A stretch of DNA of 64,000 nt. It comes from an uncultured Ignavibacteria bacterium (GTDB taxonomy: Bacteria > Bacteroidota > Ignavibacteria > Ignavibacteriales > Ignavibacteriaceae). Under the pieces are notes generated by a model that was given only the letters and a program-made list of their open reading frames with translations, made no database searches and was not told the DNA's origin. This document shows positions 5,294 to 47,376 of the stretch, in pieces. Both the position numbers and the translations under genes were made by a program. The stretch's first letter is position 1. Each line of letters begins with the position of its first letter. Location of the stretch: the NCBI GenBank assembly GCA_963815785.1, contig CAWFHZ010000016.1, positions 26,275 through 90,274 on the forward strand. Direction: 5' to 3'.

Positions 5294-5315
5294 ATCTCAC
5301 TATTTCCTTTAAGAA

Positions 5316-5764
5316 GCCTAACGAAGTTGCCGATAAGCGGCGCCCCAGAACTATTTTATTAGCCTAATTATTGTACCATAGGCTAAAATATTTGAACCAA
5401 TAGAGTAACCAGAAGTAAAGTTTTCTTTATCAACTTTAATATGAATAATTCCATCACCCCCAGAATTAGATGCATTTTCCATTAGTTCTTTAATAAGATA
5501 ATCAAAAATATCAGTCATTTTTTCCGGTTTTTTTTGAACTAAAGTGCTAAAGAAAGCACTAGTAGTTCCAATTACTTCGTAATTTTCTTTAATATCCCCA
5601 GTGCTTGCAATTATGTCTTCCATTTTGACTCCATAAATATTAAGAAGGTTTTTATTTAATTTATTTATACACTGCTAAACTGCAATGTTTATTAATCTTA
5701 CTATACTTAAGAACTACTCAAATCCCGTTTATATTACGGCGTCCGCTTGATTGGCAGGTTATAT
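5316..5764 (-). other. attC-like site 3, with a 90-aa ORF inside its central region (449 bp)
   Basis: GCCTAAC at 5316-5322 and GTTATAT at 5758-5764. The arms taacGAAGTtgccgataagcggcgcc and ggcgTccgcttGattggcaGgtta pair with the same bulged C/A geometry as sites 1 and 2. About 390 nt, including ORF 5351..5623, separates the arms. Confidence 0.55.
5351..5623 (-). CDS. small YbjQ/UPF0145-like protein (tentative), embedded between the arms of attC-like site 3
   Basis: The 90-aa ORF follows the pattern I..T.....YEVIG...(n)...A...GGDGIIHIKVD...ILAYGTIIRL. This resembles the YbjQ-family layout (TT..i.GYE..G ... GAnAv ... yGTAV). The resemblance was judged by eye only. Confidence 0.4.
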   Translation of the reverse strand: MEDIIASTGDIKENYEVIGTTSAFFSTLVQKKPEKMTDIFDYLIKELMENASNSGGDGIIHIKVDKENFTSGYSIGSNILAYGTIIRLIK

Positions 5765-26219: not shown

Positions 26220-29200
26220 ATGAAGTTTAATTCTTTCTATTTCCACATAATATTTATTATAGCCTTTTCTTTCAGCGCTGAATCGCAAGAAATACATTTC
26301 AGGCATTTAACTATTGATAACGGGCTTTCACAGAATGCTGTTTCCTCCATCATACAGGATAGACAGGGTTTTATGTGGTTTGGTACAAAGGATGGTCTTA
26401 ATCGTTACAATGGATACTCCTTTGTCATTTATCAGAACGATCCATTTGATACAACAACTATTCCACCAATTATGTAACTGCATTATTTCTTGACAAGGAT
26501 AGCTTTCTTTGGATCGGGGCGAAAGACGGATCCCTGAGTTATTTAAAAACCGGAAATGAAAATTTTAACCGCATTAATTATCAGCAAGATTCATCAGACA
26601 ACCAGGAAAATAGTTCAATCAATTGTATTGCGGAAGATTTAAACGGCAATATCTGGATTGGTACCAACGGAAATGGTTTATTCAGACTCTCATTTCCTGA
26701 TGAAAAAAACTCCAAAATGAAATTCAAACAATTTATAAATGATCCTGATGAAAGTACGAGTCTTGGTTATAATAACATAACCAGCCTTTTTGTTGATGCA
26801 ATCGGAACTTTGTGGATTGGTACCAGCCTGACTCTTGAAAAGTATAATTCCGCTGATGAAAACTTTAAACATTACAGTATCACAGTAAAATCAAAAGAAG
26901 CACCTTCTTTGCTAAGTGAAAATGAAGTCAGTGCAATTTATGAAGATAAATCTGGGAAATTCTGGCTGGGCACGCCAAGTGGTTTGGTATTATTTAATAG
27001 AAAAAGCGGGGACTATAATTTATTTCCTCACCACTACAGTATATTCAGATTCGGATGGGGAAGAATATCAAATATTCTGGAAGATGACTCCGGGTTGTTC
27101 TGGCTGGCTACTCCCGGCGGACTAATGATTTTTGATAACATTAAAAAAAAATATAATTATTGCATGAATGATCCTTTGGATCCTTCCAGCATAAGCTATA
27201 ATTCTGTCTCCAGCATCTGGCGTGACCGCACAGGTATTTTATGGCTGGGTACACCCGGTGCTGGAATTAATATTTATAATCCAAATCAAAACAGGTTTTC
27301 TACTTTTATAAGAAAAAAAGATGAAAAATCGCGGATTACCGGGTTTAGTGTCCGGGCTATACTTGAGGATAATAAAGAATATGTATGGATTAGTACAGAT
27401 GTTTTGTACAGATGGAACAGAAGCACCGGAGAACTCAAAAGTTACGAAACATCTTCAGATCATCCTGATGATTTTGGTAATACCGGTGCCCGGTCAATAA
27501 TACAATCAGTAAAAGGCGATTTATGGTTTGCGACTCCGCAGGGTTTATTCAATTATAATCCCATAAATGAAAAATCCAGGCAATATAAATTTGATCCGAT
27601 GAATACGGATGGTTTACCGCAAAGAGAAGTTTTTGCAGTTTATGAAGATCATAAAGGGGATATCTGGATTGCGACGGAAAATTATTTTTGTAAACTGACT
27701 GATTATAAAAAAGGAACATTTAAAACATTCAGGTACAATAAAAATATTCCTAAAAATGAAATTGCTCAAGTCTGTATTTATGAAGATACAAAATCAGATT
27801 TCTGGCTAGGCACAAATGACGGTTTGATACGGTTTGTACAGTCTACCGGAACTTTTTTAAAATACCGGAACGATCCTTCTGATCCTTCAAGTCTGAATAA
27901 TAATAATATTAAATCAATTTGTCCCGATCCATCGGAACCGGAAAAATTTCTCTGGTTGGGAACTGCTGGCGGAGGTCTAAACAAATTCAATTACAAAAAT
28001 AAAACTTTTACTCATTTTACGACAAAAGATAACCTCCCAAATAATGTAGTTTATGGAATTCTACCTGATGAAAAAAGAAATCTCTGGCTTAGCACAAATA
28101 GAGGATTATCAATGTTTAATCCTGTTCAGCTCAGATTCAGAAATTATGATGTGCTTGATGGTTTGCAGAGTAACGAATTTAACACCGGTGCTTATTTCAG
28201 GAGCAACCGTGGAGAATTATTCTTTGGTGGAATTAAAGGAATCAATCATTTTTTCCCGAAAAATATAAAGGACAACCGGGTAATCCCAAATATTGTCATA
28301 ACCCGGTGTATAATTCCAAGTCAATCATCTTCTACTACAAATGAGAATGGAGAAGAAATTAAATCTCTCTTAAACACAAAATCAATAACTCTCTCATACA
28401 ATGAAAATATTTTTAGTTTTGATTTTGCTGCAATGGATTTTTCGGCACCCGAAAAAAACAGGTATGCTTACAAACTCGAAAATTTTAACGAGAACTGGAT
28501 AAATACAGGCACAAGCAATACAGCCACTTTTACTCATCTTCCTCCCGGTAAATATGTTTTCCGTGTGAAAGGCTCAAACAATGATGGAGTCTGGAATAAT
28601 GAAGGAGCTTCTTTAGAATTAATAATTCTTCCTCCGTGGTGGAGAACCTTGTGGGCATATGCATTATACTTAATTTTATTTTTATCAGGTCTTTATTTCT
28701 TAAGGCGATATGAATTAAACCGGGTATATTTAAAAAATCAATTAAAGATAGAGATGGTTAAATCAGATTCGCTGAGTAATTTAAATAAGCTGAAGTCGCA
28801 ATTCTTTGCAAATATTTCACACGAATTCAGGACGCCTCTAACGTTAATCCTTGGGCAGATAGACAGCGTTCTTTCGTCAGAAATTAATTCTAAAGAAAAA
28901 GGAAAATTACACATTGCCAATCGGAACGCAGGCAGACTTCTAACCTTAATAAACCAGCTACTTGATATTTCAAAGATTGAAGCAGGAAAAATGGAATTAA
29001 AAGCTGAAAAGCATAATATTGTTTCATTTCTTAAAAGTCTGTTTTATTCATTTGAATCACTTGCTGAATCGCGAAAGATAACCCTTAAGTTTGAATCTGA
29101 GCTTCAGAATATTCCCGTAGTTTTTGATCCCGATAAGATGGAAAAAGTATTTTATAATCTTATTTCAAATGCTTTTAAGTTTACCAAATTGAATGATGAA

Positions 29201-30355
29201 ATAAGTGTAAAACTGAACCTGTATAAAACATCTGCATTGTTAATCAGGGTTAAGGATACCGGGATAGGAATAAAAACAGACCGGCTGGAGCATATTTTTG
29301 ACCGATTCTACCAGGCTGATAATTCGAATACAAGGGAACACGAAGGGACTGGAATTGGGCTGGCATTAGCTAAGGAACTAATTGAGCTTCACAATGGAAA
29401 AATTACTGTCGAAAGTAAATTTGGAGAAGGATCAGAATTTATAATTGAGCTTCCTTTGGGAGACACTAAAATTAAAATGGAACAGCCGGTTGAATTGCCA
29501 TCTTATAATATCCCTTCAACAAAACTTATCACTGTTACTGAACCGCTGAAAGAATATCAGGAGTACCCATCATCATTTGCTGAATCCGCTAATGATAAGG
29601 AAATTATATTGATTGTAGAAGATAATGCAGATGTGCTTTCATACATATGTGAGCAGCTTAAAACTGATTACCAGGTTATTGAGGCTACAGACGGTTTGGC
29701 CGGAAAATCCAGAGCACTGGATGTGATTCCTGATCTGATAATAACAGATGTTATGATGCCTAAGATGGATGGTTATACATTAAGCCGGGAAATAAGAATG
29801 GATGAAAGAACAAGCCATATCCCAATTATTATGTTAACTGCTAAAGCAGGGCTTGATGATAAAATAGAGGGACTTGAAACCGGAATTGATGATTATCTAA
29901 CAAAACCTTTCAGTGCTAAAGAATTAAAAGTTCGCGTTAAAAATTTAATTTTTCAACGCAGGCAATTGCGGAAACGCTTCAGTACCTCAACAATTATCAA
30001 ACCATCGGAAGTTTCAACCACATCTATTGACCAGGTATTTCTGAGAAAAACTTTAGAAATTATTGAAGAACATTTTGGTGATGAACAGTTTAGTGTTGAT
30101 AAACTGGCAGAAGAAATAAGTATGAGTGTTTCGCAACTTAACAGAAAGCTAAATGCCCTTGTTGATCAACCGGCAGGGCAACTAATCAGATCACTTCGTT
30201 TACAGAGAGCCGCAGATCTCTTACACAAAAATTCTGGTACAATAGCAGAGATATGTTATAAAGTGGGTTTTAATGACCAGGCTTATTTTTCCCGGGCTTT
30301 TAAAAAACAATTTGGGTGCAGTCCTTCAGAATATAAGAAGACCGAGAGTAATTGA
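26220..30355 (+). pseudogene. hybrid two-component regulator (propeller repeats / Y_Y_Y / TM / HisKA-HATPase / REC / AraC HTH) with one frameshift near 26465-26480
   Basis: Track ORF 26220..26477 holds the signal peptide and the first propeller repeat. The shifted frame reads NYVTALFLDKDSFLWIGAKDG... and joins 26717..30355. Later motifs are SHEFRTPLT, GTGIGLA, DVMMPKMDG and an AraC-type HTH C-terminus. It may be intact if the shift is a sequencing error. Confidence 0.8.
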
Positions 30356-32324: not shown

Positions 32325-32362
32325 AAAAGATGTCATCTTCAAAAAAGATGACATCTTTTGTA
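32325..32362 (+). terminator. rho-independent terminator
   Basis: A 15-bp stem, aaaagatgtcatctt / aagatgacatctttt, with a 5-nt loop, followed by a T-rich run. Confidence 0.7.
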
Positions 32363-32416
32363 TTAGAGTGAATCTTACTATGAAAGAAAAAAAATTAACG
32401 AAGACCTTCGAAAAAA

Positions 32417-32944
32417 ATGAGAACAGGATCCATTCTGCAAATACTTTTATTAGTTGCAATCACAATTACCCCTTTAATATTTATTCCCTGCTCAAATCCC
32501 GAAAAAGAAGATACTGAACAAGTAGAATCAAACATAAAATCATACACTCATACGTGGGATGAAATTATGAATCACAGAAAACAGTATAAGTTTAATAATT
32601 CCAACTTTACACAAGATGTTGTAATGCGTGCAAGTCCATCAGATATAGTTGGAATTGACGGCGCAAAAGCTTATTATTCAAACTTTCTTACCGGGTTTTC
32701 AAATATTCAATTCACAATTAAAGATGTTTTCGGGCAGGGAGATAAACTTGTAAAGTACTGGAATTTTAAAGAAACTCACACACGCTATTTATTAGACATT
32801 CCTACAACGGGAAAATATGTGGGCATTGATTGTTCAACCTAAGTCCGAATGGGTAATGGAAAAATTGCGGAGGAAAGAGATTTTTATGATAACTATGATT
32901 TTCAAAATCAATTGAGACTAATACCACCTTATGAGCAAAAATAA
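32417..32944 (+). pseudogene. SnoaL-like (ester-cyclase type) protein with a frameshift near 32835-32845
   Basis: The track ORF ends ...GKYVGIDCST*. The shifted frame continues VRMGNGKIAEERDFYDNYDFQNQLRLIPPYEQK*, which is the canonical C-terminus of this fold. Confidence 0.6.
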
Positions 32945-32959
32945 AGAGAGTTCAAAATT

Positions 32960-33677
32960 ATGGTAAGGATCTTCAGAAGCATCAGACTTAAACTTGCAGC
33001 GGAAAACAATGTTGTAAAATACCTTCGTTATGCATTTGGCGAAATCGTACTTGTTGTAATCGGAATTTTAATTGCTTTGCAGGTAAACAACTGGAATGAA
33101 AAAAGAAAAGACGCAAATTTTGAGCATGAGATTCTTTCACTTATCGATCAAAATCTTGAACAGGATTCTGTTTCCTTATCGTTTGAACTTTCCCATACAA
33201 AACTTGCTATACATTTAACTGATCGATTGCTAAAGCAAGTCGCATTAAAAAACTTTAATGATAGTTTGAATTACTGGATGGGAAAAATTATCTCCTTCGA
33301 ACGTTTTAGATCTCAATCCAGCGCTTATGAAATGTTGAAGTCCAAAGGTCTGGAAAACATCTCTGATAAAAAACTTCAGATGGCACTAATAACGTATTAT
33401 GACCAAAGTTTATACCAAATTTACCAGTCTCTGAATGACGTAGAATTATCTTTTAAACAAGATTGGATTCCGGTAATTAAAAAAGAATTTTCAGACTTTA
33501 ACTGGACAAATTACTGCATTCCAACTAATCCTGAAAGAATTCTTTAAAAAGCCATCTACAATCACTCTCTTTAAATTGTATCAGGATAACAGAAGAGGTC
33601 TTGTTAGAAATGGAGAAAAAGCACTCGATAAAATTGCTGAAATCAGAAAGCTTATTAAAAAAGACACTGGAAGATGA
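32960..33677 (+). pseudogene. paralogue 1 of the tandem N-anchor family (DUF6090-like, name from memory); one frameshift near 33535
   Basis: The N-terminus is MVRIFRSIRLKLAAENNVVKYLRYAFGEIVLVVIGILIALQVNNWNEKRK. After ..NPE the frame slips in a gaaagaa run and continues FFKKPSTITLFKLYQDNRRGLVRNGEKALDKIAEIRKLIKKDTGR*. Confidence 0.65.
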
Positions 33678-34479
33678 AAATTTTTAGAAATGTAAGACAA
33701 AAACTCGCAGCCGAAAACAGTGTTGCAAAATACTTGCGTTATGCCGTTGGCGAAATAGTTCTGGTAGTAATTGGAATTCTGATTGCATCCTTCAGGTTAA
33801 CAACTGGAATGAAAACCAGAAACAAAAAAAACGGGAAACAGTCTATTTACAAAATTTAAGTATTGATCTAAAGAAACAAATACAGCTGCAGGATATCTAT
33901 ATCGATTTTGAAGATATCTTCCTTCAGGATTGCAAAGATATAGTTGCACATTATGAACAAAATATCGGGTTCAAAAACATGGACTCCATTTTTCCAAAAA
34001 TAAATGATCTGAGTGCAAGAATATCATTCACCAATGCCAACACAACTCTTTCAGAAATGATAAATTCCGGAGACATCAATATTATTGATAATGAATCACT
34101 AAAAAAGGAACTTATAGAATTTAACCAGTTTATAGAAGGGTTTGCCAGGAATACAGTTAATAATAACACTAATCTGGTAGATCAGATTGTTGCAAGAAGC
34201 GTTGTTAAGAATAGCAACTTTGCATATTCTAATTATTCCAAAAGAATGAGAAGCAAAATTCAAAAAAATTATCAGATGAATTTTATTAATGTTAAAGACA
34301 ACACCCTGAAAACGATTGCAATTCAAAATCTCAATGAACCCAAAATTAGACTGGAGTTAATTAATGATGTGGTTTTTAGAAATGGTTTAGCCGAATTACA
34401 AAAATCAGGCGACGAAATGTTAAAAACAAAAGCAACACAATTGTTAAAACATATTGAAACAGAATTAAATCATAGATGA
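33674..34479 (+). pseudogene. paralogue 2 of the tandem N-anchor family; one frameshift near 33790
   Basis: The N-terminus is MKIFRNVRQKLAAENSVAKYLRYAVGEIVLVVIGILIA. After the shift it reads LQVNNWNENQKQKKRETVYLQNLSIDLKKQ... and joins track ORF 33979..34479. Its ATGA overlaps paralogue 1. Confidence 0.65.
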
Positions 34480-35216
34480 AAATTTTTAGGAACATCCGCA
34501 AAAAACTAGCTTCCGAACAAAAAGGAATGTCTTACCTTCGTTATGCAGTCGGAGAAATATTTCTTGTAGTTATCGGAATACTTATTGCGCTGCAGATTAA
34601 TAATTGGAATGAAAACCGAAAACTTGATAAGTCTAGACAAGAATACTATCGGCAGCTTTTAATTGATTTGAACAAGGATAAAGAATCAGCAAACTATTTT
34701 ATAGAGAGTTTTAAAAAAGAACACGAGGAATACAACAATTACCTGGAACTTTATGACAAAAAGAATTTAACTCCGTCCGAAGTTTATAACAAACTATTAA
34801 AGTTAAACCTGGCTTCCGTTTTTATGAAATTCAATTCTAACACCATAGAATCAATCCGCAGCAGCGGTGAGTTGATATTGTTTCCCCTGGAAATAAGAAA
34901 TAAATTATTGGATTTAAAAGTGTTGCAGGATAATATACTTGAGAGAGCAAAACATGAAGATAACCATAAAGCGGATGTTATCAGAAGTATGTCTCTAATA
35001 AGAGGAGCCTCAACACTTGATTCCCGACTGAAAAATCATCCTCAATTAAAAGCTTTCTTGAAATTTAATAACAATCTTCCGCAAATAATTCTGGGCTTAG
35101 ACGCAACACAAAGATGGAAAGATTTTTCAGAAACACATTCAGTTTCGAGCTTAACAAAAATGATAAAGGATATTAATGTTATCATCGGTTTGATTAAAAA
35201 TGAAATGAACAAATAA
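34476..35216 (+). CDS. paralogue 3 of the tandem N-anchor family
   Basis: The N-terminus is MKIFRNIRKKLASEQKGMSYLRYAVGEIFLVVIGILIALQINNWNENRK. The C-terminal 195 aa is divergent. Its ATGA overlaps paralogue 2. Confidence 0.75.
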   Translation: MKIFRNIRKKLASEQKGMSYLRYAVGEIFLVVIGILIALQINNWNENRKLDKSRQEYYRQLLIDLNKDKESANYFIESFKKEHEEYNNYLELYDKKNLTPSEVYNKLLKLNLASVFMKFNSNTIESIRSSGELILFPLEIRNKLLDLKVLQDNILERAKHEDNHKADVIRSMSLIRGASTLDSRLKNHPQLKAFLKFNNNLPQIILGLDATQRWKDFSETHSVSSLTKMIKDINVIIGLIKNEMNK

Positions 35217-35232
35217 ATTTTATTAAAACTTT

Positions 35233-36000
35233 ATGACCAGAATCTTCAGAAACATCAGACAAAAACTCGCAGCCGAAAATAGTGTTGCAAAATACCTGCG
35301 TTATGCAATTGGTGAAATCGTACTTGTAGTAATTGGAATTTTAATTGCTCTACAGGTGAACAATTGGAATGAACAAAGAAAATCGAAAATACATGAAAAA
35401 GAATTATATGGCCGAATATTAATGGATTTGAAAATTGATGAAGACAGAATAAACCAACATATTGATTATTTTAATAATGATTTGGAAATTCTTAATAATA
35501 TTTACCAGGAAACTCAGGGTTTTTCGAAAAGTGATTCCCTTGCGGACTTTGGTTCAATCCGGAGTTTTAGAATTTTCAATCTGGTCATTACCTCAAATTA
35601 TTCCAAAAGCACCAAAGAAATAAGCAACCCTGAAATTGAGAAAAGTTTGAATGAATATTTTGCAAGAGAACAGCTCATAAAAGATGCTTTAGAAAATATT
35701 CGAAATTTCAAGGAGAGCCATGTAAAACCCTTTCTGGCCAAATACGGCATCAATAATACAGGAGTGCTATTTAAGAACCGCCAATTAGATTATTATAAGC
35801 TTAGGGAAAAAAATATACTATCCCTTACAAAATTTAAAGCACAGTATGGTACCGTACAATTAGACCAACTGCTTTTTGGTATCGGTGTAAGAACTTCCTG
35901 GGCCAGGACAGAACTTCAACATATCTTGTCCATGAACGAAAAACTGCAATTGGATTTGATGAACGAATTGGGCGATAATAATCCATTTAATAAAGAATAA
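35233..36000 (+). CDS. paralogue 4 of the tandem N-anchor family
   Basis: The N-terminus is MTRIFRNIRQKLAAENSVAKYLRYAIGEIVLVVIGILIALQVNNWNEQRK. The C-terminal domain is divergent. Confidence 0.75.
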   Translation: MTRIFRNIRQKLAAENSVAKYLRYAIGEIVLVVIGILIALQVNNWNEQRKSKIHEKELYGRILMDLKIDEDRINQHIDYFNNDLEILNNIYQETQGFSKSDSLADFGSIRSFRIFNLVITSNYSKSTKEISNPEIEKSLNEYFAREQLIKDALENIRNFKESHVKPFLAKYGINNTGVLFKNRQLDYYKLREKNILSLTKFKAQYGTVQLDQLLFGIGVRTSWARTELQHILSMNEKLQLDLMNELGDNNPFNKE

Positions 36001-36031
36001 TGAAATTAAAGAAACAACCAACAAATAATTA

Positions 36032-36808
36032 ATGATTAAGTTCTTCAGAAATATAAGAAAGCAACTTGCTTCAGAAAACAAAGTAATGGCGTATTTGCGT
36101 TATGCTGTTGGCGAAATAGTACTTGTTGTTGTTGGTATTTTAATTGCACTTCAGGTTAACAACTGGAACGAACAGCGAAAACATAAAAATGAAGAAATAC
36201 AGTTTCTAAAAGGTTTTAAGAGAACCCTAAATGAAGATCTAAAGAACAATAATTGGAGGGGAAAGCAGTTTGAGTTAACCAGAGAATCGATTGATATCCT
36301 TCTCTCAAGCCTTAAACAAAATATGCCCTATAACGACTCGCTTTCCTACCATTTTGGTAGGATAACTCAAACCTGGAGACTCGCAACAAACAATGAGGTA
36401 TTTGAAACCTTAAAATCTTACAACTTAAATCTTATTTCGAATGAGAAATTACGGTATGAAATTGTAGGTTATTATTCTTACTCAGACAATTATCTTAAAT
36501 CTGATGTACAAACATATTTTTCAATTATTGATGATGCCAGTAAAAATATTTTCAATACAAGGTTTGATGCATTGTGGAACGGAAGCTACACGAGGAAATC
36601 CGAGAAGAGTGGAAATATTATCGATTCGAATCTACGTATGATTCCTAATGACTATGCCGAATTGAAACATGACAATAAATTTCTCTATTTCTTAAGAAGT
36701 TTAAAAAATCAATATTATTGGAAAATTGAAACGAATTTGAATAGAATAGACAAAAATGCAAATGCTTTGATTAAAAATATAGATAACGAATTAAATAAAA
36801 TAGAATAA
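36032..36808 (+). CDS. paralogue 5 of the tandem N-anchor family
   Basis: The N-terminus is MIKFFRNIRKQLASENKVMAYLRYAVGEIVLVVVGILIALQVNNWNEQRK. The C-terminal domain is divergent. Confidence 0.75.
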   Translation: MIKFFRNIRKQLASENKVMAYLRYAVGEIVLVVVGILIALQVNNWNEQRKHKNEEIQFLKGFKRTLNEDLKNNNWRGKQFELTRESIDILLSSLKQNMPYNDSLSYHFGRITQTWRLATNNEVFETLKSYNLNLISNEKLRYEIVGYYSYSDNYLKSDVQTYFSIIDDASKNIFNTRFDALWNGSYTRKSEKSGNIIDSNLRMIPNDYAELKHDNKFLYFLRSLKNQYYWKIETNLNRIDKNANALIKNIDNELNKIE

Positions 36809-36841
36809 TGAAAGCAGAACAAGTTAACCAACTAATAACTC

Positions 36842-37552
36842 GTGATTAAATTCTTCAGAAATATAAGAAAGCAACTTGCCTCAGAGAATAAAGTGATGGC
36901 ATACTTACGCTATGCTGTTGGAGAAATTGTTTTAGTTGTTATCGGGATTTTAATTGCTTTGCAGATTAACAACTGGAATGAATTAAGAAAACAAAATGTT
37001 GCTGAGACTGAATTTTTAGAAGGTGTGAAAAAAGATCTTACGCAAGACAAACAATATATCAAATTAGTCTTAAAGGAAATGGAACCGAAAATAGAGGCAT
37101 TTGACTTATTAAACAGTAAGGGGTTTTTAAAGTCTCAGAATAATAATATAACTTCCATTGACACATTATTACAAATTTATTTTTCAACAAAGGGGATACG
37201 TACATTTTATCCGGTGTCCGGTTCTTTTCAATCAGCTGTGTCCGGAAGTGAACTTAATAACTATAAAGATAAAGAAATCATCAGTTCAATCATTAAATTA
37301 TATAATTCAACTTATTCGAGATTAATTGATAACGGGAAAATACTGGATGACAGATGGGCATTTTTAAGAAAAAAATATATCCATCAATTCCGTACAGCAA
37401 ATTTTCATTTTACGGATAATGCAAAACTCTCTGAAATTATGGATGATATGTACTATCACTATCTTGAACTGCAATGGTATCGGGGAGTGTTAAAAGATAC
37501 TCTTGTTGAAATTGATGGATTATTAAAAAAGATAAATGATGGAATTCTTTAA
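36842..37552 (+). CDS. paralogue 6 of the tandem N-anchor family (GTG start)
   Basis: The N-terminus is (M)IKFFRNIRKQLASENKVMAYLRYAVGEIVLVVIGILIALQINNWNELRK. The C-terminal domain is divergent. Confidence 0.75.
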   Translation: MIKFFRNIRKQLASENKVMAYLRYAVGEIVLVVIGILIALQINNWNELRKQNVAETEFLEGVKKDLTQDKQYIKLVLKEMEPKIEAFDLLNSKGFLKSQNNNITSIDTLLQIYFSTKGIRTFYPVSGSFQSAVSGSELNNYKDKEIISSIIKLYNSTYSRLIDNGKILDDRWAFLRKKYIHQFRTANFHFTDNAKLSEIMDDMYYHYLELQWYRGVLKDTLVEIDGLLKKINDGIL

Positions 37553-37644: not shown

Positions 37645-40600
37645 ATGAAAAAGAAAACACAACAGCTAAATCCCGAACAAAAAATTTCTGAACTTCAAAA
37701 AGAGTTATTGAAAAAAACCCGCGAACTTGAAATTGAAGCCTCACTTGAAAGAGTGAGAGCCGTTGCCATGGAAATGTATAAATCAGACGACCTGCTGAAT
37801 GTAAGTGAAGTTTTGTATAAAGAACTCTACAGGTTAGGATTCAATGAGATCAGAAATGCGATGATCAATATTCATAATGATGAGAATAAAACTTTTCTTA
37901 ATTATGATTATTCCGATGAAATTGGCAGAAGCAAAACGCTTTTAAATTTTAACACACATCCCGTAATGGAAAAACAAATAAAGCAGTCACGAATTGCAAA
38001 TGATGCTTTTTCAGAAGCAGTTTACAAGGGAAAGAATTTAGAGCAATGGAAAGAGTTTAGAAGAAAATACGGAGAAAAAGAAGATCCGAGAATTGAAAAG
38101 ATAAAAGCGCTTTACTACTATTTCTATTCAATAGGTACCGGAACAATCGGCATTTCAACTTTTAGTCAAATCGATAAAGAAAAACTGGTTTTGCTCAAAA
38201 GATTCAGAAATGTTTTCAGCTTGGCTTATCGAAGATATGCAGATATAGCTTTAGCAGAAGCACAGGCAAGAGAAGCGCTAATTGAAGCTTCACTTGAAAG
38301 AGTTCGTGCTGTTGCTATGAGCATGCAGTAAGTCGGATGATCTGCTTAGCATCTGCGAAGTTTCATTCAAAGAATTTAAAAAATTAGGATTTGATAATCT
38401 CAGAAACGCTATCATTCATATTCTTAATGATGAGCAAAAATATTTTATGGATTATGATTTTTCTGATTATCTGGGCGGCGGCATTAACAAAATAAGTTAT
38501 AACTCGCACCCGATGCTCAACGAGCATCTGAAAAAACTTAAAAAGGCAAATGATGCTTTTGCAGAGGTTGTTATCGATGGTGATCAGCTGGAAAGCTGGA
38601 AAGATTTCCGGCGGAGAGGCGGACAGCAGGATGATCCGAGACTCGATGATATTCCTGCACTTTATTATTATCTCTATTCTATAGGTGTTGGGGATATAGG
38701 TATTTCAACATTTAAACAGATTGATGAATCACAAATAAAAATTCTGAAAAGATTCCGGAATGTTTTTGATCTGGCATACCGAAGGTATAAGGACATATCT
38801 CAGGCAGAAGCACAGGCGCGGGAAGCACAGATTGAATTGGCACTCGAAAGAGTCCGTGCAAGAACAATGGCTATGCACAACAGCAGCGAACTTGCAGAAA
38901 CAACCGCTGTACTTTTTCAGCAGTTTGTAGCTTTGGGAATAACTCCGAAAAGATGTTTTATCGGAATTATCGATAAGGATAAAAAAAGTGAAGATGTTTA
39001 TCTTACAAGTAACGAAGGAAAGGTAATTCCAGGCACTGAATCAGTACCAATGATGGAACAGGAATATTTGAAAAAAGTATATAATGCCTGGAACAAAAAG
39101 AAGGAACACATTTCATATAAACTGCAGGGACAACAAAGGGTCGACTGGACAACTTATATTATGAACAAAGCAAAGCTGTCTCTACCGGAATATGCATCAG
39201 ATAAATTAAACCTCGACCAATTGCAAAATGAGCCGGCAGTATTTAATTACTTTTTCTTTTCAAGCGGCCACATTGGTCTGCATACTCTCGAAGATATTTC
39301 TGAAGAGGAAATTTCTATACTGAAAAGATTTTCAGCCGTATTTGAACAAACCTACACCCGTTTCCTCGATCTGCAAAAAGCAGAAACACAGGCAAGGGAA
39401 GCTGAAATTCAACTTGCTTTAGAAAGAGTACGTGCGCGAACAATGGCTATGCATAAAAGTGATGAGCTGGCTGAAACGGCAGCTATCCTATTTCAGCAAA
39501 TGACACAGCTTGGGGTTACACCTGAACGGATAAATATCTGTCTGATTAAAGAAGAAGATAACGTCCTTGAAGTGTGGGCTACAGATCAACAAGGTGTTAA
39601 AATCAGTCATCATTTTAATACAAGTCTTGATGAGCCGACAACAGGAAAAAGAGTTTATGATGCATGGAAAGAAAAAAAGAAATCACTTATCATTGACCTG
39701 AGCGGAAAAGAACTAAGTGATTGGATCCGGTATGTGCGGGAAGTTATGGGTATGACGATTAAAGCTGAGCTGATAAGAGAACATCGGATACATAGTGTGG
39801 CTTTCTTCTCTCAAGGTATGATATTAACAACTACACCTGAACCATTACCCAAAGAGTCAATAAAATTACTGGAACGTTTTGCAGAAGTATTCAATTTAAC
39901 CTATCGTCGTTTTCTCGATCTGCAAAAAGCAGAAGCGCAGGCAAGGGAAGCACAAATTGAAGTGGCTCTTGAAAGGGTGCGCGCAAGAACCATGGCCATG
40001 CAGAAAAGTGAAGAACTCAAGGAAGTTATTCGGGTCGTTTATGAACAAATCGCTCATTTAAAAATAAATGTGGACCATGCCGGTTTTGTAGTGGATTATA
40101 CACCAAAAGGTGACTGGCATTTTTGGATTGCTGATCAGCAGGAAATACCATCTAAAATCACACATCCATACTTTGATTCAGTTTGGGCGCATCAATTTAA
40201 TGAAGCTAAAGAAAAAGGAACAGATGTTTTTACCACCAGTCTGAACTTCGAAGAAAAAAATAAATTTTACAGCGATATGTTTAAACACCTTCCAGACTTA
40301 TCTGAGGAAGCAAAGGATTTTTATTTTAGTTGCCCTGGCTTAGCCGGCTCGACAGCATTAATGCAGAATGTTTCGCTCTACATTGAGAATTTTTCAGGCA
40401 TTCCTTATTCGGATGAAGAGAATAAAATTCTGATCCGATTTGGTAAAGTTTTCCAGCAGACGTATACCCGCTTCCTCGATCTGCAGAAAGCTGAGGCACA
40501 AGCAAGAGAATCTCAGATAGAAGCAGCTTTGGAAAGAGTAAGAACTAATGCAATGGCTATGCAAAATAGTGATGATCTTGCCAAAATTGTAGAAATAGTT

Positions 40601-43486
40601 TTTACCGAACTCAGGAAAGTTGGTTTTCAAACCAGTCGTTGTGGAATAGGAATAATTGAAAGTGCCGAAACTAAAAAAGTTGATATCTGGTCTACCACAC
40701 TAGCAGATGATGAGATATCAATTCAAATCTCAGGTGATGAAATTTTAGAGGGACATGCATTATTGGACGGTATAATTGAACACTGGGTAAATCAAACAGA
40801 ATTCTCTTATGTACTTGAAGGTGATGACTTTCTGAAGTACTACCAGAGAGTTAAAAAAACAAACTTTCATTTACCAGATTACGCACAGAAAAATTTATCA
40901 AAAGATGAAAAACAGTATTACTACATGGTTCCATGTAAAGCTGGTGGTATATATGCCTTCAGCTTGGTTCCGTTTACTGATGAAGTTAAAAAAATATTGA
41001 GAAGATTTATTGAAGTCTTTCAATTAGCATATACCCGCTATGAAGACCTACAAAAAGCAGAAGCACAGGCAAGAGAAGCTAAGATAGAAGCAGCTTTAGA
41101 AAAAGTTCGTTCACGTTCATTAGCCATGCACAAGAGCAAAGACCTGGAGATAGTTATTACAGTTCTTTTACAACAATTGGAGGAAATTGGGATTCTTTTA
41201 GATACAGCCTCAATAGTTATTCCTTCAAAGGATATGAAAACATCTGTCGATTGGACCGCAAGTAAAAAATACAAGTATTCGAAGGGTTTTATCGTACCTT
41301 TCATGGAGAATGGGAAGCCGGTACTAAGTGGTGAAATAAACAGGGACATGGTTGCAGCCCTGATATCGGGGAAAGAATTTACCAAATCGTATTCTATGAA
41401 AGAAAAAAATAAATACTATCAAAATTTATTTGATAAATCCGGGTTTAGTGAAACCCCTGAAGCACGTAAAAAATTTCTTTTGAGCCTTCCTGGCATATCA
41501 GTTTCAACGGCGGGAATGTAGACCTGCAAAAAGCAGAAGCACAGGCAAGAGAAGCACAAATTGAAGCTGCCTTGGAAAGAGTTCGAAGTCGAAGTATGGG
41601 TATGCATAAAAGTAATGAGTTAAAAGATGTGGTCAGATTGCTCTACAAAGAATTTCGAATTCTTGAAACAGGTTTTGATTCTGTCAATATCCAGTTAAAC
41701 CTGGATTCTTCCAAAGATATCAATTTCTGGGCTTCGGTAGAAGAAGATGTATACCCGGAATTATATCATTTGCCGTACTCTGAGTTACCGATATTTGAAA
41801 AAATTAAAAACGCTTTTAATTCACCAGGAGAAGGATTTTTTGAGTATTCATCAAACAAAGAAGAAAAGAATGCCTTTTTCAGTGGTATATTCAAAGTCCA
41901 GCCGGTACCGCTTAAAAGAAAAAAAATAATTCAAAATGCTGAAGGAATGGTTATGATGGGATGGTTTCACAGGCATTCCGGCATTGACATCGTGCGATAC
42001 AATCTCAAACGTTTCAGTGAAGAAGAGAAGGACATAGTAAAGCGATTCGCTGCTGCATTCGAACAGACCTATATCCGCTTCACTGATCTTCAAAAAGCAG
42101 AAACACAGGCACGAGAAGCAATTAAACAGGCATCCCTGGATAGAGTGCGCGGCGAAATTGCAAGTATGCGCACTGCTGAAGATTTAAATCGCATTACACC
42201 TATTATCTGGCGTGAACTAAAAACACTCGAGGTTCCCTTTATCAGGTGCGGTGTTTTTATTATTAATGAGGAAGATGAAGTAACGCAGGTTTATTTAACC
42301 ACGCCTGATGGTAAAGCACTCGGAGTTTTGAATTTGAGATTTGATGCAAATGAACTCACCCGTAATACAGTTAAGTTCTGGAGAAAAAATGAAATCTACA
42401 GAGAGCACTGGAATAAAGAAGAGTTTTTAAACTGGACAAAATCAATGATGAAACTCGGACAGGTTCAGAATGCAGAAACTTACCAGGGTTCATCAAATCC
42501 CCCTGATTCACTTCACCTTCACTTTGTTCCATTTACACAGGGGATGTTGTACGTTGGTGATATTTCTCCTCTTACTGATGAAAAACTCGATCTTGTAAAA
42601 ACATTGGCAGAAGCTTTCTCAATTGCCTATGCACGTTACGAGGATTTTAAAAATCTTGAAGATGCAAAAAATAAAATAGAGATTACATTAAATGAATTAA
42701 AAGCCGCACAGGCACAGCTTATCCATTCAGAAAAGATGGCATCACTCGGTGAACTGACTGCAGGCATAGCTCACGAAATTAAAAATCCTTTAAACTTTGT
42801 GAACAATTTTTCAGAGATAAGCCGGGAATTATTAATGAAATAGAAGATGAATTACAGAAAAATGATAAAGAAGAAGTGCATTGATCTATTCTAAAAGATT
42901 TAAAACTAAATCTTGAAAAAATAAATCAGCACGGTAAACGAGCTGATTCGATTGTAAAAGGAATGCTTCTTCACTCAAGAGGAACTTCGGGAGAAAAAAC
43001 ATTAACGGATATAAATGATTTGCTTGATCAGTATGTTAATCTTGCCTACCACGGAATGAGAGCACAGAATAAAGAATTCAATATAACGATTGAAAAAGAT
43101 TACGACGAATCATTGGAAAAGATAAGTGTAATACCGCAGGATATCAGCAGAGTATTTTTAAACATAATTAACAATTCCTGCTATGCGGCGTATGATAAGA
43201 AAAAGAAAAACAATGATGAAAATTTCTCTCCGATATCTGAAAGTCTCAACAAAAAAACTGAATGGGAAAATTGAAGTAAGAATTGCTGATAACGGAAACG
43301 GAATTCCAAAAGATAATACTTGATAAAATATTCCAGCCTTTCTTTACAACAAAGCCATCCGGCGAAGGAACAGGTTTAGGATTATCGTTAAGTTATGATA
43401 TAGTTACGAAAGTGCACGGAGGTGAATTGAAAGTTGAAACTACTGAAGGTAAAGGAACCGAATTCATAATCATTTTGAAAAATTGA
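37645..43486 (+). pseudogene. giant sensor histidine kinase with nine tandem modules of about 185 aa; interrupted by frameshifts, a deletion and an in-frame TGA
   Basis: Track ORFs 37645..38331, 38447..41521, 41572..42843, 42963..43274 and 43283..43486 join into one reading when shifted. Modules are delimited by ..LKRF..VF...[37 protein letters not shown]. The C-terminus holds HisKA ([27 protein letters not shown]) and HATPase ([23 protein letters not shown]). Confidence 0.8.
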
Positions 43487-43495
43487 GAAACACCA

Positions 43496-46400
43496 ATGAA
43501 AAATAACTTCACAAAAATCCTTTATACTGTAGTATGTTGCGTTATAATACTTAACTCGGGGTTGGCAACTATTACCTTCGGACAACAAAGAAATTATTTG
43601 TTCGAAAATATTTCAGATTCCAGAAGGACTCTCAAATTCTAACGTGAATTATATCTTCCAGGACACAATGGCTTTCTCTGGATTTCAACTGCAGACGGAC
43701 TTAACAGATATGATGGAAATAATATAAAAGTATTTAAAAACGATCCGAATGATTCCACTACAATACCAACGAATGATTGCTATGCAATTACAGAGGATTC
43801 GGACGGATTTATCTGGGTTGGTGTTTCAAATAATATTATTGCAAAATATGATCCCAAAAATGAAACTTTTCAAAGCTATCACATTCAAACTTCAGGTGTC
43901 ACTAAAATATCATTATTTTATTCGGCACATGTTAGACTCAAAAGGAAATTTATGGTTTGGATCTTCGTATCATGGAATACAAAAATTCAACAAAGCAAAA
44001 AATAAGTTTGAACAGATGCACTCTTGAGGTAATCCAATAAAAATATTCAATGGGGAAATCTCTATGATATAACTGAATTAAAGAATGGAAGTCTACTTAG
44101 CTAGCTGATTACGCAAATGGTATAAAAATATACAATGAGAAGCTCAATTTATTTCAGCCATATTTACCTCAAAACCAATTTCAGTCCGGATCAAATTTCA
44201 AAAATCTATCAAGACATAGCCGGAAATATTTGGTTCGGAGGTAGAAATGCTACTTTAATCAAATACTCTCCCAGCTTATAATACTATTGAAAATATCGAT
44301 ATTTTTGGACCGAACAAAAATGGCAAGGGAAGCTATGACAAATAGATGGAATCGTTCAGGATGATGAAGGATATTTATGGGTAGGAATTTATTCGAGGTG
44401 AATTTCACAGAATTGATGTCAAATACAAAAAGCATTCAGAAAATACGATTACAGTAATCAACAAATTCAGATATTGCAGCAAGAATAGTTATTAAGTCAA
44501 CTAATTAAGAGACAAATATGGTAGTAGTCTGGATGGCGACATGTGGTAAAGGACTCATCAAATTTGATCCGCTTAGAGAACCGTTTAATTTTTATAAGTT
44601 TATTGCTAACCGGGGCTGCAAGTTCCAGCGCAAATTTTTCAACAGTAATAGCGGGTTTACAGCAGAGCAAAGAAATAATAGTCGGAACATCTGAAAAGGG
44701 GTTATTTACTTATGATACTGGAAAATCATAAGTCTGAATAACTTAAAATCTCAAAATTGACAAATCTAATGCTGCAGGAGGGAAAATAAATATTCAGGGT
44801 CTTGCTGTTGATAATGAGGGTAATAAATGGTTTGCATATAATAATCTTGGTCTGCACAGAATTGACAAGAATAATTTGTTAAGCACTTATCTAAATCGCC
44901 TAATGCAAATAAAACCACAAATATTATATAAACTCGATAAAGACTAGATTCATCAGGTAATATCTGGATTGCCTCAAGACAGGGATTTGAGAAATACGAA
45001 CCCGTCCCAAAATCAATATACGTTCCTACCAACGATAATGAATAAACCGATAAGAGAGGAACTAAACGCAAAAAATACATAGAATAACTGAGTCCAGAAA
45101 CCTATAGCTTCCATATTAAAAGTTGGTGAAGCCTCAAATCTGGAAAAAACATTCACCCTGAATTCAGACCAGAAAGTTTTAATAATTGGTCTAGGAGAGG
45201 GTCAAATGGATGTCGGCGTGGGTCTTTCAGATGCCGGATCATTATTAAACAAAGATGGTAAGACAATCTGGTCGATGAATGATTTATATAAAACATTTAA
45301 TGACGGGGGAGGATTTAAAAACCGGATTGCACTTGGATGTTTAAATTTGAAAAAGGGAGATTATAAAATTACATATGCAACAGATGTGGGTCACTCTTAC
45401 GGCACTTGGAATGTAACTCCACCTCCTGATTCCCTGTGGTACGGAATTCAGGTATTGAGTTTAACTGAATCCGATTATAACAGCATTAACCAAATGAATG
45501 AAAAAGAAATTAACTCCAATAAATTTATGCATACGGAAATAGGCACAAGTATTGAATTCAGTAAGCGGTACCGTAATGTTCTTTGGTTAGGTTCTACACA
45601 AAGCGGATTTTTTAAATATGATTTAACAACAGGTAATTTTAAGCAATATAATTTTGACTCCCTGAATGTTAGTTCTCTGAACAATTATATTAATTGCATT
45701 TTTGAAGATCGGGAAGGAATAGTCTGGATTGCAACAGCAAACAGTTTACTAAGATTTGATCCCTCCACTGAAAATATTAACAGATTTGATCAAAAAGACG
45801 GCCTTCCCTCCAATCAAATAAATTCGATTCTAGAAGATCTTGAAGGGAGTCTTTGGATTAACACCTCAGCAGGATTATCCAAACTGAATAAAAATGCACC
45901 TAAGGATAAATGGAATTTTGTCAACTTTGATGCTCAGGACGGGCTTCAGGGTTTCACCAGCAGTAAGGCAAACTGGATTGATAAAGACGGAGAAATATTT
46001 TTAGGAGGAATCGATGGGTTTACATATTTCTATCCCGGCAAAATTAATGAGATAAAACCGGATATAGTTATAGAGGACATAAAAGTTTCTGATATCTCAC
46101 TTAAATCAGATTCCTCTGAAATTAAGACTGATAAAAGTGTAATGAGGCTGAATGAACTTAATCTTTCATATACTCAGAATAATTTATCCTTTGAGTTTGC
46201 TTCGATCCATTATTCAAGACCTGAAAAAAATAAAATTATGTACAGACTGGAGGGTTTTGATAATCACTGGCTGTCCAATGATCGGGATTTCGCTTCATAC
46301 AATAATCTTTCTCCGGGTGAGTACACATTTATGGTTAAAGGCTCAAACGGTGATGGGATCTGGAATGAAGGTGGAAAGTCAATAAAAATTATTATCAATC

Positions 46401-47376
46401 CTCCATGGTGGAAAACCATTGTTGCATACATTAGCTACTTTTTCGTGTTTGGTTTTTTAGTTTTTGGTGTAGACAGGTTCCAGAGGAGACGTTTAATTGA
46501 AAAAGAACGAACCATTGCAAAAGAGAAAGAGCTTGAGCAGGCAAAAGAAATTGAAAAAGCCTATGACGAATTGAAGGCTACCCAGGCACAGCTTATTCAT
46601 TCAGAAAAGATGGCTTCACTCGGTGAACTAACAGCAGGTATTGCACACGAAATAAAAAATCCTTTAAACTTCTATTAATAATTTTTCTGAGATAAGTACT
46701 GAATTGCTGGATGAAATGCAGACCGAATTAAATAGCAACGACAAAAAGAGTGAGAGTGTAAAGGAGATAGTAGAAAATTTGAAACAAAACCTGGAAAAAA
46801 TTAATCTGCATGGAAAACGTGCAGATTCCATCGTGAAAGGAATGCTTCTTCACTCAAGAGGGACTTCCGGAGAAAAAACACCAACAGATATAAATGATCT
46901 GCTGGATCAATATGTAACTCTTGCTTATCACGGATTGAGGGCACAGGATAAAGAATTTAATATTACAATTCAAAAAGATTATGATAAGTCAATTGAAAAG
47001 ATAGATGTTGTTCCGCAGGATATAAGCAGGGTATTTCTCAACATAGTTAACAATGCCTGCTATGCGGCAAATGAAAAAAAGAAACAGGATAATGGTAATT
47101 TTAATCCGGTACTTAAAGTATCAACGAAAAATTTACAAAACAGTGTTGAAATCCACATAATAGATAACGGAAATGGAATACCGTTTATCAGCAAAAGAAA
47201 ATATATTTAATCCTTTTTTTACAACCAAACCAACCGGCGAAGGAACGGGTCTGGGACTTTCGCTAAGCTATGATATCGTTACAAAGATGCACGGCGGGAA
47301 TATAGCTTTTAAAACTGAAGAAGGTAAATACACAGAATTTATAATAACATTACCTAAACACAAAGAGGCAAAATGA
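43496..47376 (+). pseudogene. second sensor histidine kinase (propeller repeats / Y_Y_Y / TM / HisKA-HATPase); N-terminal 1.7 kb heavily fragmented
   Basis: It starts MKNNFTKILYTVVCCVIILNSGLA. The stretch 43.5-45.2 kb gives only short propeller-repeat fragments in all three frames (ADGLNRYDGNNIKVFKNDPNDSTTIP, GFIWVG, GNLWFGS). 45206..46678 is intact through Y_Y_Y and the TM segment. Further shifts lie near 46675 and 47190. The C-terminal kinase core is paralogous to 42.66-43.49 kb. Confidence 0.75.

Follow-up and report, generated by a model that had tools for sequence, protein, structure and literature searches.

The window analysed in this work is a stretch of 64,000 nucleotides (nt) from an uncultured Ignavibacteria bacterium (contig CAWFHZ010000016.1), and its element of interest is a tandem array of six genes encoding proteins of the DUF6090 family (Pfam PF19578). 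All coordinates are positions of this stretch, the six array genes are designated w1 to w6 in their order, and the loci used for comparison carry L-numbers. The listing of open reading frames (ORFs) and the raw sequence both display six genes in succession on the forward strand at 32960-37552 (Table 1), an arrangement that had been described in an earlier sequence-only reading of the window. The junctions w1/w2 and w2/w3 consist of ATGA overlaps, and gaps of 16, 31 and 33 nt follow w3, w4 and w5. Each gene opens with a constant 5' module, which is followed by a variable region referred to below as the ectodomain. The best matches of the window proteins are found in Ignavibacteriaceae and in Ignavibacteria metagenome-assembled genomes (MAGs).

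The array proteins are 236-267 amino acids (aa) long and all six exceed the PF19578 gathering score of 23.5 bits, which establishes that the family name proposed in the sequence-only reading was correct. The scores, obtained for w1 and w2 with repaired frames as described below, amount to 32.9 bits for w1 (31.7 repaired), 46.2 for w2 (repaired), 25.0 for w3, 28.0 for w4, 36.4 for w5 and 64.2 for w6. A length of about 230-270 aa, a single N-terminal transmembrane (TM) helix and a distribution within the Fibrobacteres-Chlorobi-Bacteroidetes (FCB) superphylum agree with this assignment for all six proteins. The Pfam model begins at the glutamate (Glu) of the TM helix, residue 27-28 of the array proteins, and leaves out a conserved cytoplasmic leader of 27 residues. 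In the types represented by w3-w5 the match is limited to the first 45-65 positions. Pfam lists the family without a function and records no array organisation for it, and NCBIfam contains no model for the array proteins.

Table 1. Coordinates of the array genes, their 5' modules and associated features in the window
Feature	Coordinates	Strand	Description
w1	32960..33677	+	DUF6090 gene, ectodomain type 1; frame broken near 33534, tail frame ending in the ATGA that starts w2
w2	33674..34479	+	DUF6090 gene; ATGA overlaps with w1 and w3; lesion in the TM-coding part
w3	34476..35216	+	DUF6090 gene, rare ectodomain type
w4	35233..36000	+	DUF6090 gene, rare ectodomain type
w5	36032..36808	+	DUF6090 gene
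w6	36842..37552	+	DUF6090 gene, GTG start, commonest ectodomain type; cassette presence varies among close relatives
w1 constant 5' module	32960..33109	+	Cytoplasmic amphipathic helix, TM helix and NNWNE.RK motif; from alignment and repeat family D2
w2-w6 equivalent modules	33674-33825, 34476-34622, 35233-35382, 36032-36181, 36842-36991	+	As w1 module
Putative gene-conversion tract in w1 module	32988..33049	+	Clustered differences versus L006 orthologue
w2 module with two recombination junctions versus close relatives	33674..33792	+	From L006 and L085 comparisons
Multi-module histidine kinase (context only)	37645..43490	+	HisKA match; split by frameshifts in this assembly

Identity step between module and ectodomain

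In a MAFFT alignment of the six genes, the copies share on average 73% of positions in pairwise comparison over the first ~150 nt (range 67-85%) and 31% over the remainder. When calculated in windows of 30 nt, mean identity stays at 65-80% across the first 150 nt and then settles at about 30-40%. An independent repeat finder returned a single family (D2) made of six 121-nt copies, 66-83% identical to each other, and nothing deeper into the genes. The sharp identity step described by the sequence-only reading is confirmed by both the per-window profile and the repeat finder; the 80-90% nucleotide identity it had attributed to the 5' ends proved too high, the measured mean being ~73%. Its description of the C-terminal parts as near-unrecognisable is fair at the pairwise level, as phmmer finds similarity among the six only between w1 and w5 (1e-9) once the N-terminal 55 residues are removed.

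The origin of the similarity between modules was addressed with a 78-nt block present in 35 modules from 5 Ignavibacteria genomes. Modules of one genome and modules of different genomes are equally alike, at an identity of 0.785 in either case (permutation p=0.47), and third codon positions agree at frequencies of 0.54 within and 0.53 between genomes. Homogenising gene conversion, or concerted evolution, was rejected since modules are no more alike within genomes than between them. Because the two identities are equal and third positions agree at only ~53%, the sameness of the module is attributed to selection at the protein level. These nucleotide comparisons firmly indicate that purifying selection on the protein, not homogenising conversion, keeps the modules similar, and the conservation of the module across phyla fits such selection. 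On the practical side, the first 150 nt of these genes are unsuitable for inferring orthology; the ectodomain types behave as orthologous groups.

Conservation of the ectodomain types

Selection on the ectodomains was estimated over their whole length, by the method of Nei and Gojobori, as the ratio of nonsynonymous (dN) to synonymous (dS) divergence. The dN/dS ratio lies at 0.09-0.34 in 15 of 17 orthologue pairs; the other two pairs, w1 and w4 versus their L006 counterparts, display values of 0.24 and 0.56 that rest on just 6 and 10 substitutions. Neither a ratio above 1 nor rapid turnover between close relatives, the expected marks of positive selection, was encountered. The w2-w5 block is 98.2% nt-identical to that of L006, and the ectodomains encoded by these four genes differ by 1-3% between close relatives.

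At larger distances, the ectodomain types possess 50-69% identical orthologues in other phyla (Flavobacteriaceae, Cryomorphaceae or Balneolaceae). Proteins in Cryomorphaceae, Winogradskyella and Rhodohalobacter loci match the w1 ectodomain at 62-69% identity. Orthologues of w2 occur at 80-84% identity in L005, L008 and L031 (ectodomain dN/dS 0.24-0.34), and a Flavobacteriaceae protein matches the w2 ectodomain at 49% identity. The w3 protein is 98% identical to its L006 orthologue (dN/dS 0.09). The w4 protein seemed the most isolated of the set; a search with its ectodomain alone retrieved 29 clusters, among which are proteins of Psychroserpens, Xanthomarina and Sediminicola at 50-60% identity. 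Orthologues of w5 are found at 84% (gene a6 of L001), 82% (L005) and 99% (L006) identity, with ectodomain dN/dS of 0.13-0.18, and full-length homologues of w6 at 80% in L001 and at 52-58% in Flavobacteriaceae such as Formosa. The view of the array as hypervariable and diversifying is not borne out by these ratios (0.09-0.34) nor by the conservation of the types across phyla (50-69%). As judged from their substitution patterns, the ectodomains evidently constitute many discrete and ancient types, each under purifying selection.

Recombination at the module

Traces of recombination were sought in comparisons with the close relatives L006 and L085, most of the close comparisons available being from one Ignavibacteria lineage. 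The w1 genes of the window and L006 are separated by 26 differences, 19 of which fall within 32988-33049, that is, in 62 of 718 nt (binomial p=2e-15). In this tract the L006 version agrees with more distant w1 orthologues and the window version resembles modules of the w4/w2 type. The gene content of the arrays also varies: the order is w1-w2-w3-w4-w5-w6 in the window, w1-x1-w2-w3-w4-w5 in L006 and w1-w2-w3-w4-w5 in L085. The w6 gene is absent at its position in both relatives, and x1 is a w6-type gene, 74.5% nt-identical to w6, located between w1 and w2. The x1 junction lies within the first ~46 nt of the w2 module, where base 33682 of the window matches x1 and not the w2 gene of L006. At the other end of the same module (~33790), the comparison of the window with L085 passes from ~10-19 differences per 50 nt (~24% divergence) to ~0-3 per 50 nt (~2%).

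A similar signal is apparent over larger distances. In orthologue pairs with an ectodomain dS of 0.3-0.65, the dS of the module is at least 1 or saturated. At the four-fold degenerate sites of 38 unsaturated orthologue pairs, modules differ at a frequency of 0.50 and ectodomains at 0.27, the module value being the higher one in 31 of the 38 (Wilcoxon p=8e-6). Codon composition was rejected as the source of the excess module dS because the excess persists at these sites. Finally, a module carrying a 7-residue insert is found on types a2 and a5 of L001; their L031 orthologues (87% and 94% ectodomain identity) are devoid of the insert, which is carried by two other L031 types. The clustered w1 differences, the junctions in the w2 module, the four-fold excess and the reassortment of the insert module all indicate sporadic ectopic recombination that appears, in these alignments, localised to the module. 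Gene conversion or recombination among the 5' ends had been suggested by the sequence-only reading. The copies do recombine, as seen in the 62-nt tract of w1 and in the gain and loss of cassettes, but conversion does not account for their similarity (0.785 in both comparisons, p=0.47).

A GC-rich palindrome (CCTGCCTG...CAGGCAGG) is inserted in frame at one and the same module site, after the E-N codons, and encodes LP..QAG in several Ignavibacteria genes and one Flavobacteriaceae gene (L001 8173-8193 and 10736-10756; L031 6216-6236, plus the L031 gene at 4599-5402; L039 11599-11619; L085 5726-5776). The insert mostly measures 21 nt, reaching 51 nt in L085. Intergenic copies of this palindrome occur in L014, L022 and L029, and the window contains no copy. 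The palindrome resembles a small hairpin repeat that is able to insert in frame within coding sequence.

Topology and predicted fold

The protein module spans ~50 residues and is almost invariant. In it, a cytoplasmic helix that is basic and amphipathic precedes the TM helix GEIxLVVIGILIALQ, which bears an invariant Glu and a GxxxA motif; the sequence NNWNE.RK follows at the outer face. The family consensus derived from 264 sequences reads MIKFFRxIRxxLxxENKxxKYLxYAIGEIxLVVIGILIALQINNWNExRK, most TM positions being at least 90% identical. The net charge across the family is +5.5 on the N-terminal side of the hydrophobic helix and +0.55 on the C-terminal side. This asymmetry clearly predicts bitopic inner-membrane proteins with the N-terminus in and the C-terminus out, and supports the single-pass topology with an outer variable domain that had been proposed for the array.

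An AlphaFold2 model of w6, built on a 63-sequence alignment, is entirely helical, with a mean predicted local distance difference test score (pLDDT) of 86.8 and helices at residues 2-14, 18-91, 144-178 and 193-235. The 74-residue helix 18-91 holds the TM segment and runs on outside the membrane; a cap made of short helices and loops (about 93-143) is located between the long helices. The model of w4 presents the same succession of helices at a pLDDT of 63.7. Comparison of the w6 and w4 profiles with hhalign yields a probability of 99.9 over columns 1-123, the alignment extending beyond the module to take in the first helix of the ectodomain as well as the DS...R.F motifs. The models and profiles together describe a predicted all-helical ectodomain of ~190 residues, in which three long helices and a variable cap would form a scaffold common to the types. 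Aromatic and charged residues that are invariant within a subfamily cluster in and around the cap, and the set differs by type: RTFYP.SG, Y154, R160, W172 and H206 for the w6 type, and another set for the w4 type. Such a distribution is consistent with type-specific binding sites. When the N-terminal 61 residues and the isolated ectodomains were submitted to Pfam at E<=10, DUF6090 was the only convincing match; the other match listed, Malt_amylase_C (15 bits), is spurious.

Extent of the family and organisation of its arrays

A genome scan identified more than 587 DUF6090 loci, 84 of which served as the sample of the array survey. Two thirds of these 84 loci contain at least two same-strand copies with a pitch of 750-800 nt. 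The largest arrays comprise 18 copies (L036, Winogradskyella maritima), 12 copies (L071) and 11 copies (L013 and L031); many genomes hold a single copy. Clustering of 265 ectodomains at 40% identity produced 163 types. When ectodomains of the same locus are paired, 644 of 669 pairs are without BLAST similarity and only 4 reach 40% identity. Because most pairs within a locus lack similarity and the types are conserved, the arrays are understood as non-redundant sets of old types and not as recent tandem duplicates. The typical tandem array evidently amounts, on the strength of the survey, to a co-oriented, tightly packed and non-redundant collection of differing types.

A profile of the 55-residue module was run against 1.84 billion representative proteins (50%-identity clusters) and matched 10,945 clusters at E<=1e-3, 8,432 of them at E<=1e-10. 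Among the 150 matches listed, the module occupies residues 1-55 in all except one short fragment. The module-bearing proteins are mostly 235-270 aa long, with a minority of 340-417 aa, and homologues originate from Ignavibacteria, Flavobacteriaceae, Saprospiraceae, Cyclobacteriaceae and Balneolales. The DUF6090 family is thus very large, and its distribution is confined to the FCB superphylum. When 72,556 plasmids and 50,697 phages were searched for DUF6090 proteins by tblastn, no match was returned.

Several observations on individual members were made in the course of the survey. A minority of DUF6090 proteins of ~350 aa possess an extra beta-rich C-terminal domain (L001 8938-9990, L013 8151-9209, L056 2095-3189, L079 4206-5255 and L037 10783-11844). 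Of the three variants that were scanned, L001 and L056 gave sub-threshold DUF3471 matches (E 3.7e-5 and 1.6e-3), which are uninformative, and L037 gave none. DUF3471 otherwise terminates hydrolases of the beta-lactamase family, and such hydrolases are the commonest non-family neighbour of the arrays (13 loci). Two pairs of ectodomains, L031 7688 with L079 1100 and L008 6141 with L079 3305, are 86-90% identical with few four-fold differences, each pairing an Ignavibacteria MAG with a MAG labelled Balneolales; this closeness suggests either a recent horizontal transfer of cassettes or mis-binning. A locus labelled Gammaproteobacteria (L019) has three DUF6090 copies.

Frameshifts in w1 and w2

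The first two genes of the array are interrupted in this assembly, and the sequence-only reading had reported two single-nucleotide frameshifts. This holds for w1, which carries a single extra nucleotide near 33534; in w2, 2 nt are inserted at 33789-33790, accompanied by two flanking substitutions. Both lesions are missing from L006 and L085, each of which has private indels elsewhere. The repaired w1 protein (238 aa) aligns end to end with its orthologues (96% identity with L006 and 78% with gene a1 of L001), and for repaired w1 and w2 the dN/dS is below 0.35 with conserved downstream frames. The kinase gene located downstream (37645-43490) is likewise split into at least 4 ORFs, with breaks near 38331/38447, 41521/41572 and 42843, whereas its L006 orthologue is one intact ORF of 1778 aa. 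The Reg_prop-type gene that follows the kinase (~43498-46678) is also heavily fragmented.

The damage to these two large genes points to numerous indel errors of the assembly, real decay being less likely. Contig names such as contig_48018 and MFD MAG labels suggest assemblies that we take to be of the long-read kind. Pseudogene status of w1 and w2 was considered and is not supported, as the lesions are private to this assembly, the frames are constrained and the neighbouring kinase is broken as well. Since the lesions are absent from both relatives, and since the kinase is broken here but intact in L006, the frameshifts of w1 and w2 are, by this comparison of sequences, most likely assembly errors. 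Frameshifts in this assembly are not usable as biological evidence.

Genomic context of the array

Upstream of the array, a hybrid kinase of the Reg_prop/Y_Y_Y type, which has an AraC output and is encoded at 26717-30355, is followed by four small genes, including a DUF4440 gene and a SnoaL-like gene. A perfect 16-bp palindromic hairpin (AAAAGATGTCATCTTC...GAAGATGACATCTTTT) is present at 32325-32359 between these two. It is probably a bidirectional terminator, in which case the array may be transcribed as a unit together with the SnoaL-like gene and apart from the genes further upstream. A promoter and terminator scan produced counts equal to the shuffle expectation and no terminator within the array, FCB promoters being outside the coverage of the scan. 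The SnoaL-like gene is itself a mosaic when compared with L006: in the segment 32400-32900, divergence is ~50% at 32400-32550 and 32800-32850, with near-identity elsewhere. The gene is absent altogether in L085. Being mosaic or missing in the relatives, it shows that strain-level recombination also touches the left flank of the array.

The protein encoded immediately downstream (37645-43490 in the window, 13094-17749 in L001, 9695-13933 in L085) is a giant one made of ~9 repeats of ~185 residues, each opening with a coiled-coil-like motif. In the window, eight LERVR-type module starts and a HisKA match can be recognized. The repeats have no Pfam match and no TM-like segment. The output differs between loci, with HisKA/HATPase domains in the window and L085 and SpoIIE in L001. 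This giant neighbour is an uncharacterised cytoplasmic multi-sensor architecture. Arrays are also located directly upstream of the orthologous multi-module protein in L001, L005, L006, L008, L031 and L085, some of these proteins ending in SpoIIE. In ~75 loci of other lineages the neighbours are mixed and none is universal; they include beta-lactamase-like hydrolases, S41/tricorn peptidases, amino-acid permeases, transporters of the major facilitator superfamily, FIST proteins and acyltransferases.

Interpretation

Taken jointly, the reading that we favour combines four elements: an invariant membrane anchor, conserved ectodomain types, a module that doubles as a recombination handle, and the use of the array as a repertoire of adaptors. 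A probability of roughly 0.6 is given to this combination. As the only DNA common to the copies, the module serves as a homology handle. Short conversion tracts, unequal crossovers and cassette replacement take place in it, with the result that modules and ectodomains reassort and that whole cassettes are gained and lost between close relatives. On the side of function, each ectodomain type would bind its own periplasmic ligand or partner, as the type-specific conserved residues of the predicted cap point to. The 20-residue TM helix, at least 90% identical across phyla, with its invariant Glu, its GxxxA motif and polar Gln/Asn residues, together with the amphipathic helix, leads us to infer a specific intramembrane or juxtamembrane contact, which the constant module could make with a common partner or with other copies of itself. 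The invariant TM helix and cytoplasmic tail could then dock all types, singly or as mixed oligomers, to one shared membrane or cytoplasmic partner, and the array would supply a common machine with a repertoire of input or adaptor modules that can be interchanged. Tight co-orientation, the ATGA overlaps and the lack of internal terminators point to co-expression. That the arrays are periplasmic binding or sensing adaptor repertoires docking through the constant module to a single machine is, when taken as a claim of its own, put forward as a tentative possibility.

A number of points weigh against this reading. The shared partner is pure inference, since no gene is conserved beside the arrays across phyla: when the 357 neighbouring ORFs of 82 loci were clustered by BLAST, only lineage-specific or generally abundant ones emerged. 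The Foldseek comparison suggested for the ectodomains provided no informative structural relative of the w6 model, PDB and BFVD returning generic helical bundles only and no match with E<0.001; the confidence of the w4 model is low (pLDDT 63.7). The orthologue pairs of the reassortment statistic are not independent, as loci recur among them, and most close comparisons are drawn from a single Ignavibacteria lineage. Some of the identity-block boundaries could reflect allelic exchange between strains and not ectopic events, and the w6 indel has its right-hand boundary outside the modules. The sequence-only reading had raised the possibility that such arrays are ubiquitous and already characterised; ubiquitous they are, with two thirds of the 84 loci being multi-copy, but no mention of DUF6090 or PF19578 was found in the literature searched.

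The evidence described above also bears on other explanations. The sequence-only reading had favoured a diversifying family engaged in an arms race, with ectodomains rendered hypervariable by positive selection and 5' ends homogenised by gene conversion. The sharp drop in nucleotide identity (73% to 31%), the ectodomains that pairwise searches fail to relate to each other and the genuine conversion tract in w1 are all as such a family would have them. This explanation is nevertheless barely tenable in view of the low ectodomain dN/dS in 15 of 17 pairs, of types that are 50-69% conserved across phyla and differ by 1-3% in w2-w5 between close relatives, and of modules that are equally alike within and between genomes with third positions at ~53%. 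The same sequence-only reading had considered a functional link with the adjacent kinase, which in its developed form would make the six proteins dedicated co-sensors feeding periplasmic signals to the nine-module histidine kinase. The adjacency is real in the window and in the six related loci named above, and the region is rich in sensors, the upstream Reg_prop/Y_Y_Y hybrid kinase included. Those loci, which were compared at the DNA level, are syntenic relatives and count as one observation; with adjacency confined to them and heterogeneous neighbours in the ~75 loci of other lineages, those of Flavobacteria being unrelated, the link rests on one inherited synteny block. Moreover, the kinase orthologues are without a TM-like segment, leaving the 27-residue tail as the sole means of contact, and the output domain of the neighbour varies between SpoIIE and HisKA among relatives. 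We consider dedicated co-sensors very improbable.

Two further explanations borrow from systems with a comparable gene organisation. In an immunity or exclusion repertoire, each type would neutralise its own periplasm-acting toxin or block its own phage or effector, and the types would be collected by horizontal transfer in the manner of orphan immunity gene arrays. Non-redundant arrays drawn from very many discrete types, the presence or absence of cassettes among close relatives and near-identical types in distant lineages (for instance L031/L079, 90% aa identity and 7 of 62 four-fold differences) would all be expected of it. It is considered improbable, as no toxin, type VI secretion, recombinase or mobile-element genes recur beside the arrays and the plasmid and phage collections are without matches. 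The searches for defence and phage families remained at chance level (best E 0.003-0.005): the PHROGs matches are weak (E>=0.003), and so is the one PADLOC match, that of w6 alone to HamA (E=0.005, 14 bits), which is probably spurious. In addition, a simple signal anchor would be enough for such proteins, and the invariant 50-residue module with its conserved cytoplasmic tail is left unexplained. A pilin-like or hetero-oligomeric envelope assembly, in which the invariant, hydrophobic and Glu-bearing N-terminal helix would form a core for polymerisation or packing that the variable domains decorate, is judged quite improbable. The gene logic resembles that of pilins and pseudopilins (a conserved hydrophobic N-terminal helix with a Glu, C-termini that vary, co-oriented overlapping tandem genes), the TM segment and its continuation make up a single helix of 74 residues in the w6 model, and the GxxxA motif with the polar Glu, Gln and Asn of the TM segment could drive helix association. 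Against this, no N_methyl or pilin match was obtained in Pfam even at E<=10; the motif is G-E (...YAxG-E-I-x-L-V-V) and not G-F/M-x-x-x-E, and conservation is high in the 27-residue leader too; the ectodomain consists of alpha helices only; prepilin peptidase, ATPase and platform genes are not among the recurring neighbours; and many genomes have a single copy. An identity as type IV pilins or pseudopilins proper was given little weight: the class III signal peptide and the N_methyl domain are missing, the model has no alpha-beta fold, and assembly genes are lacking among the recurring neighbours.

The favoured reading, that of an invariant anchor bearing conserved and exchangeable ectodomain types, can be widened to the family as a whole. 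In this widest form, DUF6090 would represent a modular input system not yet described in the FCB superphylum, with thousands of conserved periplasmic receptor or adaptor ectodomain types plugging through the invariant module into one membrane machine. The DNA of the module would serve as the recombination handle with which genomes assemble, exchange and prune non-redundant repertoires that reach 18 types at a single locus. The arrays would then constitute a cassette system whose logic is like that of pilin or integron cassettes, but which handles conserved functional modules and not antigenic variants. This widest proposal is regarded as unlikely. DUF6090 is among the larger uncharacterised envelope families of Bacteroidota, Ignavibacteriota and their relatives. 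The genes of the window are members of a family that is catalogued and uncharacterised, and the picture at the family level appears to be undescribed.

Comparison with known systems

DUF6090 arrays resemble pilin sets and immunity arrays in their gene logic and bitopic regulators in their topology, but lack the defining features of each of these systems. Among type IV pilin and pseudopilin sets, recombination of the pilE/pilS style occurs at conserved 5' segments. Type IV pilins and DUF6090 share a Glu-bearing hydrophobic N-terminal helix, variable C-terminal domains, co-oriented tandem paralogues and conserved 5' DNA that acts as a recombination substrate. Unlike the pilins, DUF6090 proteins have no prepilin cleavage motif, display a long conserved leader and an all-helical ectodomain, and are encoded without adjacent pilus biogenesis genes; their variable parts are under purifying selection and not subject to antigenic variation. 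Orphan immunity gene arrays, exemplified by the acquired interbacterial defence clusters of Bacteroidales, are likewise non-redundant arrays of small proteins with many discrete types and a content varying between close relatives. DUF6090 arrays differ from them by the lack of associated recombinase, toxin and secretion genes, and by the possession of one homologous scaffold and an invariant N-terminal module.

With respect to the proteins themselves, sensor ectodomains of the 4HB_MCP/Tar-like kind have in common with DUF6090 a helical bundle built on a helix that continues from the membrane and a variable membrane-distal region. DUF6090 departs from them in having one TM helix only and no cytoplasmic output domain, and Pfam relates it to none of the 4HB families. 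The listed Foldseek matches, none of which attained E<0.001, include neither a chemoreceptor nor a kinase sensor domain. Closer in topology are bitopic accessory proteins that use a short conserved tail or TM helix, such as YycH/YycI, which operate with WalK, and PilN, which binds PilM via an N-terminal peptide. They share with DUF6090 the N-in single pass, a short conserved N-terminus or TM segment as the likely interaction surface and an extracytoplasmic part as the likely input. DUF6090 has no similarity to them in sequence or fold and no consistently nearby partner gene, and is set apart from these accessory proteins by its thousands of ectodomain types and by arrays of up to 18 copies per locus.

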